64,000 nucleotides of DNA, taken from NCBI GenBank assembly GCA_963725665.1, contig CAVRZA010000008.1, forward strand, positions 160,001 through 224,000, given 5' to 3'. Of this stretch, positions 55,878 to 58,411 are shown one piece after another. The notes beneath the pieces are model-generated. The model was given only the letters and a program-made list of their open reading frames with translations, was not told the DNA's origin and did no database searches. Position 1 is the first letter of the stretch. Each line of letters begins with the position of its first letter. The translations under genes were made by a program, and so were the position numbers. Source of the DNA: an uncultured Actinomycetes bacterium. Its GTDB lineage: Bacteria > Actinomycetota > Thermoleophilia > UBA2241.

Positions 55878-56328
55878 AAGATCAGACGAGGCCCTTTTGA
55901 GCGCTGCCGCCGGCCCCACCGGCGTCCCGGATTCGGCATCCCCCACCGCTGTCACTTTGGTGACTGTCGGCCGGCATCAGACGAAGGGTGGCGTCACGCG
56001 GTAGTCGCCGGCGTGCGATCATCCGTCCGCTCGTTATCGACGCCATCGCCGTGTTGCTCTGTGCGCAGCTGCTCATGAGTGCGGCGGAGATCCGATTCCT
56101 GAGGTCGTGTGCGTTCGGCGTCCTTCGTTCGCCGCTCCGTCAGCGACGGCCCCACCCAACGTCGGCCTCACCTACGATACTGATCGCGAGGCTGAGCCCG
56201 GGTACTGGGTCTCGGCGCGGTACGCACGGAGGGCAAAGCTGGCGCCTGGATCGCCGCTGGCCATGTCGCGGCATCGGACATCGTTCGGAGCCGGGCGTTG
56301 CGGGAGGGCGCAAACACGCCACGGTACA

Positions 56329-56342
56329 CGAACATATGTTCG
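56329..56342. promoter_or_regulatory. LexA (SOS) box, Gram-positive type
   Basis: Perfect palindrome CGAACATATGTTCG (GAAC-N4-GTTC). Confidence 0.8.
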
Positions 56343-56529
56343 CTACCGGCCAAGGGCGGCGCGGAAGTCCGCCGCGGAGGTGCTCTCGCAGGGACGAAGG
56401 CCTAGACGCTATGGCGGTTCTTTGACCGCCGAGCTTGCTGACGAAGGCCGGACCCTGTTCGCATATCTCGGGGGTTTGTCTGGCCGGAGACGAGCTCCGG
56501 CTGACCCCATACGAAGGGAGGGTCCGACC

Positions 56530-57612
56530 ATGACCACGTTGACATGGGTTGGGTTGGATGTCCACGCCCGCTCCGTCGAAGCCGCTGCTCTGGACGCCCT
56601 GACGGGCGAGATCAGGCGAGCTCGCTTTGGTGGCAGTGCGGAGCCGGTCGTTGAGTGGCTTGCCAGGCTGCCCGCTCCGGTGCACGCTTGCTACGAGGCG
56701 GGACCGACGGGCTACGGCCTCTACCGAGCCGCTCAGCGGGCCGGTATTGAGGTCGATGTCGTCGCCCCCAGCAAGACGCCCCGGGCCAGTGGCGACCGCG
56801 TCAAGAGCGACCGCAAGGACGCCCAGCTGCTCGTGCGCCTGCTCTCTGCCGGCGCGCTCACCGTTGTCAGCGTGCCGCCGCCCACCTTGGAGGCCGCCCG
56901 CGACCTGGCGCGGGCTCGCGAGCAGCTGCGCGGCGACCTCATGCGCGCCCGCCACCGCGTCTCCAAGCTGCTTCTGCGTCACGGCCGCCTCTATGAGCGC
57001 CAGAGCAGCACCTGGACGCAGGCGCACCATCGCTGGCTTGCCGCCCAGCGCTTCGATGAGCCGGCGACCGAGCTCGCCTACCTCGACTCCCTGGCCGCCG
57101 TGGACGGCCTTATCGCGCGCAAGGCGGCCCTCGAGGAGCGCCTCTCGCAGCTGGCCGTGGCGCCCGAGATCTGGCCCACGGTGGCCCGCCTGCGCGCCTT
57201 CCGCGGCATCGACACCCTCTCGGCCCTGGTGCTGCACCTGGAGGTGTGCGACTGGGGGCGCTTCGCGCGCGCCCCGCAGCTGGCCGCCTGGCTGGGCCTG
57301 GTGCCCTCGCTGTGCCAATCGGGCGAGAGCGCCACACAGGGGGCGATCACCAAGACCGGCTCGCGCTACGCCCGCCGCATCCTGGTCGAGGCCGCCTGGC
57401 ACTACGCCCGCCCACCGCGCATCGGCGCCACCCTGACCAATCGCCAGCAGGGCCAGCCCGACCACGTGCTGCAGATCGCCTGGCGGGCCCAGCTCCGCCT
57501 GTGGCACCTGCAGCGGCGCCTTGCGCAGCGCGGCAAACCGGCCAACGTGGTGACGGTCGCCCTGGCACGCGAGCTGGCCTGCTTCTTGTGGGCGGCAGCC
57601 GTGGCCCCCTAA
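56530..57612 (+). CDS. IS110-family DEDD recombinase/transposase
   Basis: WVGLDVH, CYEAGPTG, KSDRKDA, WLGLVP...QSG, ITKTG. Confidence 0.96.
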   Translation: MTTLTWVGLDVHARSVEAAALDALTGEIRRARFGGSAEPVVEWLARLPAPVHACYEAGPTGYGLYRAAQRAGIEVDVVAPSKTPRASGDRVKSDRKDAQLLVRLLSAGALTVVSVPPPTLEAARDLARAREQLRGDLMRARHRVSKLLLRHGRLYERQSSTWTQAHHRWLAAQRFDEPATELAYLDSLAAVDGLIARKAALEERLSQLAVAPEIWPTVARLRAFRGIDTLSALVLHLEVCDWGRFARAPQLAAWLGLVPSLCQSGESATQGAITKTGSRYARRILVEAAWHYARPPRIGATLTNRQQGQPDHVLQIAWRAQLRLWHLQRRLAQRGKPANVVTVALARELACFLWAAAVAP

Positions 57613-57619
57613 GGGCGGC

Positions 57620-57830
57620 TGATCGACCCCCCGTTCGGAGGGCAGGCGTCGGGCCGGCAGTCTGCCGGCATGCGCGACCGTACTATGGGCAGCCGCAAGG
57701 CAGCACCCGTTCCTAGAGAAGCGCCAAGCCGGTGACGAAGTAGCGCACCGGGGTAGCCAACCCCCGCATATCAGATTGACCGACCGTCGTATCCGCGCCC
57801 GGCGCCTGCCATCCGAACTCCTCGCTACCC
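57620..57830 (+). ncRNA. Candidate bridge/seek RNA of the IS
   Basis: Short matches to both strands of the target and to the circle junction, flanking hairpins; boundaries approximate. Confidence 0.65.
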
Positions 57831-57880
57831 GCGTCGAACGGGAGGTTCAGCCCTGCCTGCTTGACAGGATGAGCGCCATA

Positions 57881-58411
57881 TCAGTACTGCACCAAGCTCA
57901 GCAGGTCGTACCCAGGAAGCTTGTCGCGGCCGCGCAGGTCGACGAGCTCGACGATGAAGGCGAGCCCCACGACCACGCCGCCGAGGCGCTCGACCAGCTC
58001 GCACTTGGCCTTGGCCGTCCCCCCCGTCGCCAGCAGGTCGTCGTGGACCAGCACGCGCATGCCGGGCTTGATCGCGTCTTCGTGCATCTCGAGACTGTCG
58101 GTGCCGTACTCGAGGGCGTACTCGGCGGAGATCGTCTTCCACGGGAGCTTGCCGGGCTTGCGCGCCGGCGCGAAGCCGATGCCGAGCTTGTAGGCCATCG
58201 CGGCGCCGAGTATGAAGCCCCGCGACTCGGCGCCGACGATCAGCTCGGCGTCCTTGCTCTGCGCGTAGTCGGCGAGCTTGTCGACGGCGAAGCGCAGCGC
58301 CTCGGCGTCGAGGAGCAGAGGCGTGATGTCCCGGAAGAGGATCCCCTCCTTGGGGAAGTCGGGGATGGCCCGAATCTTGCCCGCGATGTCTACTGCAGCC
58401 CTCTGCTCCAT
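57881..58411 (-). CDS. apt: Adenine phosphoribosyltransferase
   Basis: PDFPKEGILFRDITP, ESRGF, RKPGKLP, DDLLATGGT. Confidence 0.97.
   Translation of the reverse strand: MEQRAAVDIAGKIRAIPDFPKEGILFRDITPLLLDAEALRFAVDKLADYAQSKDAELIVGAESRGFILGAAMAYKLGIGFAPARKPGKLPWKTISAEYALEYGTDSLEMHEDAIKPGMRVLVHDDLLATGGTAKAKCELVERLGGVVVGLAFIVELVDLRGRDKLPGYDLLSLVQY

Follow-up and report, generated by a model that had tools for sequence, protein, structure and literature searches.

Can an insertion sequence find both its target and its own ends by means of an RNA that is encoded behind its recombinase gene? This question is raised by a locus in the stretch of DNA analyzed here (the window), 64,000 nucleotides of contig CAVRZA010000008.1 from an uncultured Actinomycetes bacterium of the Thermoleophilia (assembly GCA_963725665.1), in which an IS110-family insertion sequence keeps 272 nt of sequence downstream of its recombinase gene, as against 124 nt upstream within the element. 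An earlier examination of the letters alone (the original prediction) had proposed an RNA-guided recombinase with an AG core, a CTAG-centred target and an RNA encoded downstream of the gene, and comparison with related elements bears this proposal out. Segments of the downstream region match the target and the ends of the element, these segments covary with the flanks and with the ends among relatives, and the region has a conserved fold. Our reading, to which we give a probability of about 0.88, is that the locus is an active or recently active IS110-family element of the IS1111 type with a downstream bridge RNA or seekRNA. The element and the recombinase gene, on which the following sections rely, are arranged as follows.

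56404–56405, + strand: left copy of the AG core, preceded by the left target half CT (56402–03)
56406–57884, + strand: insertion sequence, 1479 bp including the right core copy, delimited by comparison with a second genomic copy and with the same end architecture in relatives
56410–56416, + strand: left sub-terminal inverted repeat TATGGCG, complementary to 57874–80 and preceded by the 4-nt extension ACGC (56406–09)
56530–57612, + strand: transposase/recombinase gene, intact, 360 amino acids, Pfam DEDD_Tnp_IS110 and Transposase_20, NF033542
57874–57884, + strand: right sub-terminal inverted repeat CGCCATA (57874–80), extension TC and right copy of the AG core (57883–84)
57885–57887, + strand: right target half TAC, within the last codons of the apt gene on the minus strand

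The strings on which the original prediction was built are all present in the window, namely GTACTA at 57680–85, CCTAG at 57712–16, CATATCAGA at 57767–75, the hairpin GCC-GCAA-GGC at 57692–57701, CGTC at 57785–88 and TTGACA at 57861–66.

Target guides and insertion sites

Two segments of the downstream region were candidates for reading the target.

57680–57685, + strand: right-target guide GTA-CT-A, complementary to the target top strand T-AG-TAC, with GTA as the programmable triplet
57713–57717, + strand: left-target guide, CTAG followed by an invariant A, the same as the target top strand and so able to pair with the bottom strand

The invariant A at 57717 equals the first base of the left end. 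Related elements were collected in a family scan with one genome per species, which returned 78 distinct loci with proteins 62–78% identical to this one. Their hosts are nearly all Solirubrobacterales, Gaiellales and other Thermoleophilia metagenome genomes, many with several copies, and the non-coding region is approximately 70–75% conserved over window positions 57628–57810. The ends of these elements were fixed by comparing copies within a genome, independently of any motif search. Without exception, the relatives have (C/T)TAG at the left junction, with a sequence similar to AC(C/G)CTATG behind it, and CATAT(C/G)AG at the right junction, beyond which the flank varies from one element type to another.

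For the right side of the target, 80 right ends with a recognisable guide region were available (that of locus L057 had none), and after removal of 5 duplicates the six RNA bases 5' of an invariant CTA were compared with the six bases to the right of the element in 75 distinct insertions. Watson–Crick pairs are formed at flank positions +1, +2 and +3 in 67, 73 and 73 of the 75, and at +4, +5 and +6 in 39, 15 and 8. All of +1 to +3 are paired in 64 insertions, or in 66 when wobble pairs are allowed. The guides are diverse, comprising 35 different six-base sequences and 18 different triplets, and when one flank per guide type is taken, 29 of the 35 match fully, while 10,000 permutations gave at most 11. 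Moreover, the pairs formed by the triplet and flank +1 to +3 have the highest mutual information of all the combinations of RNA column and DNA position that were examined. The proposal that GTACTA is a target guide is thereby upheld.

The left side was compared in the 71 insertions with both flanks available. In 68 of them the RNA has the same base as flank position –4, and both elements flanked by TTAG (L030 and L078) have TTTAGA in their RNA, while –5 is identical in 22 and positions from –5 outwards are at chance. In the same set flank +4 pairs in 37 insertions, a number not attained in any of 10,000 permutations. The bases at –1 to –3 were preset by the pattern used to search for left ends and carry no weight in this count; the copies within genomes support them separately. 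In all 48 distinct RNA sequences both CTA and TAGA are invariant. Of the CCTAG that had been proposed as the second target guide, CTAG thus follows the left flank, but the first C (57712), which corresponds to the position identical in 22 of 71, does not. Judged from these pairings, the site read by the RNA would be C-T-[AG]-N-N-N with a weaker fourth base, which in this element is CT-AG-TAC.

Donor guides and the ends of the element

The donor segments lie 3' of the target guides.

57742–57745, + strand: donor guide AGCG, complementary to left-end positions +2 to +5 (CGCT) and extendable to 57740–45 in this copy
57767–57775, + strand: donor guide CATATCAGA, identical to the right end, the core and the first base of the left end

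They were compared with the ends of 45 elements for which both ends were at hand, since 3 of the 48 distinct RNA sequences were without a recognisable left end. The right end occurs as CATATCAG or CATATGAG, and this C/G variant is mirrored in the RNA segment at 57767–75 in 45 of 45, as expected if the segment is the top strand of the circle junction, which had been the original proposal. In addition, the RNA segment matches the joined right end, core and left end exactly over 6–10 nt in all 45. At the left end, the RNA column of 57744 carries the complement of position +3 (G or C) in 98%, and the AGCG columns pair with +2, +3, +4 and +5 in 44, 44, 40 and 25 of the 45. Matched variants of left end and guide include CGCT with AGCG, CCCT with AGGG and CGAT with ATCG. 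The 5' donor guide seems to be without the core, unlike the target loop.

Two further features concern the bases that follow AGCG. At position 57747, among the three unpaired bases between AGCG and the next hairpin (P6), a metagenome variant (run X9) has G instead of A, and most relatives have C at the equivalent position. Column 144 of the RNA alignment (A1), which corresponds to 57746, correlates with position 10 of the inverted repeat, a correlation that may be phylogenetic.

A conserved RNA fold

The original prediction had suggested folding the region and searching for covariation, and this comparison yields a conserved fold at 57635–57816 with 13 compensatory pairs.

57635–57816, + strand: structured non-coding RNA, long bridge/seekRNA form of approximately 180 nt, closed by the outer stem P1
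57644–54 with 57797–57807, + strand: counted pairs of P1, which by direct reading continues to 57635–39 with 57812–16
57664–57733, + strand: target-binding arm, consisting of P2, P3, an internal loop, P4 and P5
57664–69 with 57728–33, and 57672–75 with 57721–25, + strand: stems P2 and P3
57686–90 with 57705–09, and 57692–94 with 57699–57701, + strand: hairpins P4 and P5
57749–57766, + strand: hairpin P6 between the donor-matching segments, five pairs, 99.6% paired, two with changes on both sides
57777–57789, + strand: local hairpin P7 (TGAC...GTCG), which contains CGTC and is structural, not a guide

RNAalifold was applied to the 48 distinct sequences and pairs were counted on the named structure, which gave six helices and 32 pairs. 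Of 1532 cells, 97.7% are paired, and 13 of the 32 pairs have changed on both sides, values that none of 500 column shuffles reached; when the partners are slid by 1–3 columns, pairing falls to 28–44%. For the region as a whole, folding of the single sequence gives z = –2.8. In this structure the target guides are the two strands of the internal loop, and the donor segments flank P6 in a multiloop. Several U-G pairs are invariant (48 of 48 in P4, 47 of 48 in P6), and because such pairs would be C-A on the opposite strand, the strand that folds is the sense strand of the recombinase gene. The pair of P7 at alignment columns 181–196 is A-U in 23, G-C in 24 and G-U in 1 of the 48 sequences. A stem closing the donor loop, between the region of GACG (57734–37) and CGTC, was also considered and was dropped, as the relatives designated group B cannot form it and P7 is compensated.

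A covariance model built from the alignment matched just three places in the genome, each of them immediately downstream of an IS110-family recombinase gene. Two are copies of the present element, with 138.9 bits each (here at 57637–57811), and the third, with 84.7 bits, belongs to an apparently single-copy element on contig 4 (approximately 338300–339800; L182 1420–2880; minus strand) whose diverged recombinase gene is in part 67% identical at the DNA level. The third element has the guide GGTG-CTA with the right flank CACC, the left flank CCCTAG and the right end CCATATCAG, and with its different triplet it is an independent confirmation of the guide arrangement within the same genome.

Based on these features, and by analogy with IS621 and ISEc11, the following mechanism may be proposed. 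An RNA of approximately 180 nt (57635–57816) would be transcribed in the same sense as the recombinase gene and would act as a bridge/seekRNA. Through the two guides in the internal loop of its target arm it would recognise CT-AG-TAC, of which AG would be exchanged, and the multiloop around P6 would provide the donor guides, with AGCG pairing to left-end +2 to +5. The complex of recombinase and RNA would then bring the target together with the already joined ends of an excised circle, strands being exchanged at AG. Here we infer the production of the RNA, its binding to the protein, the circular intermediate and the order of strand exchange.

The recombinase and the copies of the element

That the gene encodes an intact IS110/IS1111 recombinase, as originally proposed, is supported by its full-length frame, by both Pfam domains (PF01548, E = 3e-14; PF02371, E = 1.2e-16) and by a match to the NCBIfam model NF033542 ('IS110 family RNA-guided transposase') of 214 bits against a cutoff of 140, covering profile positions 1–337 of 343. 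The protein can be aligned at a distance to the solved recombinases of ISCro4 and IS621 (E = 7e-6 and 1.5e-4, a marginal similarity), and the alignment preserves the D, E, D..D and SG positions. In the alignment with the ISCro4 recombinase the pairs GLDV/GIDV, YEA/MEA, SDRKDA/TDAVDA and QSG/ESG are retained, and the aligned D, E, D and D together with the SG serine are presumably the catalytic positions. Of the plasmid-borne relatives found, none shares more than 50% identity with it.

The ends and the AG core that had been proposed are confirmed by the second copy, which lies on contig 6 of the genome (3.73 Mb, 12 contigs) and matches the window over 56402–57887. The two copies are at least 99.9% identical, with about 1 difference in 1486 bases. 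Here the element is flanked by ...GGCCTAG and TACTGC..., and both junctions carry AG, while the flanks of the second copy are ...CCTCTAG and TACGACG...; the two insertions have nothing in common beyond CT-AG in the left flank and TAC in the right one. AG is repeated at both junctions of both genomic copies and of all multi-copy relatives, while a long target duplication and terminal inverted repeats are absent, which is the pattern of an IS110 core. Variants of the element were also found on contigs of three wetland or sediment metagenome runs, where the match begins at 56402, preceded by one of three different sequences, and breaks off at 57887 or 57888, followed by one of two, TAC being kept. 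The original prediction would have been contradicted by copies with other ends or with targets that do not fit the guides; the second copy and the metagenome variants agree with it instead. Across 45 relatives the sub-terminal repeats form a perfect run of 4–11 bp, with 18 distinct compensating pairs. The sequence of the circle junction used above is a reconstruction from these ends. In the metagenome contigs there is also a joint that skips 2083 bases (from 56157 to 58241, side 20, with other letters between), which was judged to be unrelated.

The apt gene and the empty site

The right end of the element lies on the end of a neighbouring gene.

57881–58411, minus strand: apt (adenine phosphoribosyltransferase-like), open reading frame, Pfam Pribosyltran, its stop codon TGA now supplied by the right end of the element

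The insertion is exactly on the apt stop codon. The reconstructed sequence before insertion reads TAC-TAG, and afterwards the right end (..TCAG) gives TAC-TGA, so that the length of the apt protein is unchanged; relatives with the right end ..TGAG would not preserve it. Because apt orthologues keep the C-terminus ...VQY, the bases to the right of the element belong to apt and not to the element. When metagenome contigs were scanned with the apt protein, orthologues at 96%, 93% and 84% identity were found, the contig of the 93% orthologue stopping before the stop codon. The 84%-identical orthologue ends ...AAG TAC TAG GCC, the other strand of which is GGCCTAGTAC, that is, the reconstructed empty site at the same codon. 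The empty site that had been proposed is thus seen in an orthologue, and it was not recovered from the same strain. The 30 nearest genomes belong to other genera, their apt DNA being at most 78% identical and their apt genes ending in TGA or TAA, and comparison of the flanks in two sister metagenome genomes that carry the same relative gave no syntenic empty site.

A candidate junction promoter

One further signal faces the right end of the element.

57861–57866, + strand: TTGACA, candidate –35 box of a promoter formed at the circle junction

The sequence TTGACN is found exactly 18 nt from the element end in 45 of 45 relatives. When the ends are joined with one copy of the core, the hexamer reached over a 17-nt spacer is GAC(C/G)CT; it agrees with the pattern NANNNT in 44 of the 45 and with TANNNT in none. 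A sigma-70 scan of the linear element gave 0 promoter-like sites; one terminator-like site inside the recombinase gene was set aside. By analogy with ISEc11, in which a junction promoter has been described (PMC11187229), a promoter that forms in the circle is plausible. The idea that TTGACA faces the left end after circularisation is hence supported by its conserved distance from the end and weakened by the poor –10-like hexamer.

Evidence against and alternative readings

Several observations weigh against an active, RNA-guided element. With respect to the guides, at least one mismatch in +1 to +3 occurs in 11 of the 75 insertions and flank –4 is mismatched in 3 of 71; left-end +5 pairs in only 25 of 45, and the three bases between AGCG and P6 are CAC in this copy, unpaired with the core. 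Related sequences are not independent, so that the counts overstate the number of events, yet the 18 different triplets require many separate changes. With respect to the RNA, a scan of 56000–58300 against Rfam at E up to 10 gave two chance-level matches (E = 4 and 10), both outside the region, and the sequencing runs listed include none of RNA; the –10 hexamer at the junction, GAC(C/G)CT, is non-canonical. As for the site, the 96%-identical apt orthologue ends ...CAG TAC TGA GGC, with no CTAG there, and no empty site of the same strain was found in the nearest genomes, the sister genomes or the metagenome contigs. Finally, no circle junction, in which the element is joined back on itself, appears in the contigs of four DNA metagenome runs over 55900–58400, nor does an excision joint that leaves out precisely the element, and the genome has 19 perfect CTAGTAC sites without an insertion.

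The last of these points could indicate a dead relic that keeps old guide-like segments and is no longer mobile. CTAG itself is found 2089 times in this genome of 68% GC, against 10,912 expected from base composition (approximately five-fold depleted), and the 19 free CTAGTAC sites compare with 187 expected (approximately ten-fold depleted). Either activity is low or something beyond the 7 bp matters. That there are just two copies despite these free sites, that neither circle junction nor excision joint is seen in the four metagenome runs, and that the junction promoter is weak would all suit a relic. But the copies differ by about 1 base in 1486, the frame is full-length with its catalytic positions aligned, near-identical variants occupy at least 3 other sites in environmental contigs, and the guides fit the actual flanks exactly, which makes loss of mobility unlikely. 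It is less probable still, and in our view very unlikely, that the guide map of the original prediction is right in full, including CGTC (57785–88) as the guide to the left-end side of the circle junction. In this copy CGTC is complementary to G-ACG, the second core base with left-end +1 to +3, and all four pairs hold in 8 of the 45 relatives. However, left-end +3 switches between G and C while the CGTC column stays C, the base facing +3 pairing in 8 of 45 and that facing +1 in 22 of 45, and the left end is tracked by AGCG (57742–45) instead. As the T/C change between CGTC and CGCC is compensated by an A/G change between TGAC (57777–80) and TGGC, in the proportions given for P7, CGTC is the 3' half of a structural hairpin.

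A third alternative is that the target is read by the protein or through DNA–DNA contacts and that the region behind the gene is not a guide but a protein-binding or regulatory element of DNA or RNA. In its favour, the left half-site CTAG hardly varies throughout the clade, as would be expected of a motif read by a protein, and sub-terminal inverted repeats suggest that the protein recognises the ends. Against this stand 18 flank triplets that are matched at one fixed position of the RNA while the proteins remain 62–78% identical to this one, strand-specific G-U pairs with compensatory changes in the stems, and the RNA guidance demonstrated experimentally in relatives within the family (PMC11187229, PMC11208160). 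We regard protein reading alone as scarcely credible, and a mobile IS1111-type element guided by its downstream RNA remains the preferred interpretation.

Comparison with known systems

Elements of the IS1111 type have their RNA downstream of the gene and carry sub-terminal inverted repeats, usually of 11–13 bp (PMC11187229), with a range of 7–17 bp given in PMC11208160. The 7-bp repeats found here are shorter than usual and lie at the short end of the published range. The group is characterised by the motif GL-P----S(t)G in the C-terminal domain (PMC11187229), with which GLVPSLCQSG in the present translation agrees. Published terminal extensions measure 7 bp (left) and 3 bp (right); here they are 4 + 2 nt without the core, or 6 + 2 or 4 + 4 depending on the side to which the core is assigned. 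In its DEDD recombinase with this motif, its RNA within a long non-coding region downstream of the gene, its sub-terminal repeats with short extensions and its –35-like box near the right end, the element resembles ISEc11, ISPa11 and ISKpn4 (PMC11187229). It also follows the IS1111-type rule that the target segment complementary to the top strand stands 5' of the one complementary to the bottom strand (PMC11187229): the top-strand match (57680–85) precedes the bottom-strand match (57713–17), and the two overlap at the insertion point. The assignment to the IS1111 type is made from architecture, motif and RNA layout, and on that footing the element would be a new member that follows a known principle.

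There are differences from the same elements. The RNA has approximately 180 nt as compared with 145–170 nt in ISEc11, ISPa11 and ISKpn4, the protein 360 amino acids as compared with 330–350, and the target 7–8 bp as compared with the 12–20 bp listed for studied seekRNA elements (PMC11187229). Donor-matching segments are evident here, whereas none is described in those sections of PMC11187229 that are drawn on in this work. The named protein relatives are ISSso6 (42%) and ISEc45 (39%).

Bridge RNAs contain left and right guides for target and donor, each including the core, and for 93% of IS1111 elements they are predicted to lie in the right end, where their donor bases often form part of a multiloop (PMC11208160). 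Like IS621 and ISCro4 (PMC11208160), the present element combines one recombinase with one RNA that has separate target and donor parts and with a 2-nt core, and the programmability of guides of that kind appears here as natural covariation. Unlike those systems, the RNA lies in the right end rather than the left, the order of the guides is reversed, the core is AG rather than CT, the donor guides stand in a multiloop rather than a simple internal loop, and the 5' donor guide appears without the core. The RNA would accordingly be one that works like an IS621-type bridge RNA and, as judged by its position, guide order and multiloop, is not a member of that type. ISPpu9 of Pseudomonas putida is likewise an IS110-family element with a small RNA gene (Ssr9) downstream of its transposase gene; it targets REP sequences and has extra solo RNA copies (PMC12288879), while in the genome studied here no solo copy is detected by the covariance model. 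Among the literature matches listed, none ties a bridge RNA or seekRNA to Thermoleophilia or to a CTAG target; the supplements of the key papers may list relatives.

Irregular copies among the relatives

A few related loci depart from the usual arrangement. One copy (L008 3743, compared with L012/L037 3867) is without the 124 bp between an internal and the terminal CATATGAG. The internal occurrence is the donor-guide segment of the RNA gene, and the deletion thus runs between the guide's DNA copy and the true end. Its right flank is the same as that of the full copies, and this flank, TGATCA, does not match the guide of that element. At another locus (L057 3689–5150) approximately 1.46 kb of foreign DNA lies in the RNA gene directly after the guide segment CCTAGA, with a 6-base alignment overlap, and is probably another mobile element that also favours CTAG. 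Two copies in tandem, with only GGCTAG between them (L068 3857–3865 and L067), are what would be expected if two adjacent CTAG-GGC sites had been hit or if a circle had inserted beside an existing copy. The left flank of a further insertion (L047, approximately 2260–2320) contains a repeat of approximately 50 nt, of which at least 17 further copies are present in a sister genome, and for some members of the clade the insertion site may be in or close to a dispersed repeat.

Implications for the family and its hosts

At the level of annotation, the element is corrected in its ends, core and target and receives an RNA gene of approximately 180 nt without an Rfam match. The combination of a short target with many natural retargetings by three bases is unusual; it leaves the established principle unchanged and raises the interest of the system modestly. 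A more far-reaching idea, to which we give somewhat less than an even chance, is that the Thermoleophilia clade practises recombination with minimal guides. Its target would be of 7–8 bp, made up of a fixed palindromic half-site CTAG that includes the core and of three, sometimes four, changeable bases; it would have been retargeted at least 18 times by a change of triplet; and recognition of the donor would be split between short RNA segments (4 nt and 7–10 nt) and sub-terminal repeats read by the protein. If this is true, the specificity per guide base would be far above that of IS621-type systems, or the elements would rely on the approximately five-fold depletion of CTAG in high-GC genomes to limit their spread.

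In a wider sense, the comparison indicates that RNA-guided recombination of the IS1111 type is widespread among genomes of uncultured Thermoleophilia (Solirubrobacterales and Gaiellales) and is actively diversifying there; actinobacteria of soil and wetland would be a new group for it. The 35 guide variants and 18 triplets with known insertion sites amount to a natural experiment, and this series could inform us about the minimum number of guide bases, the tolerance of mismatches and the recognition of the donor in a less-studied branch, that of IS1111.

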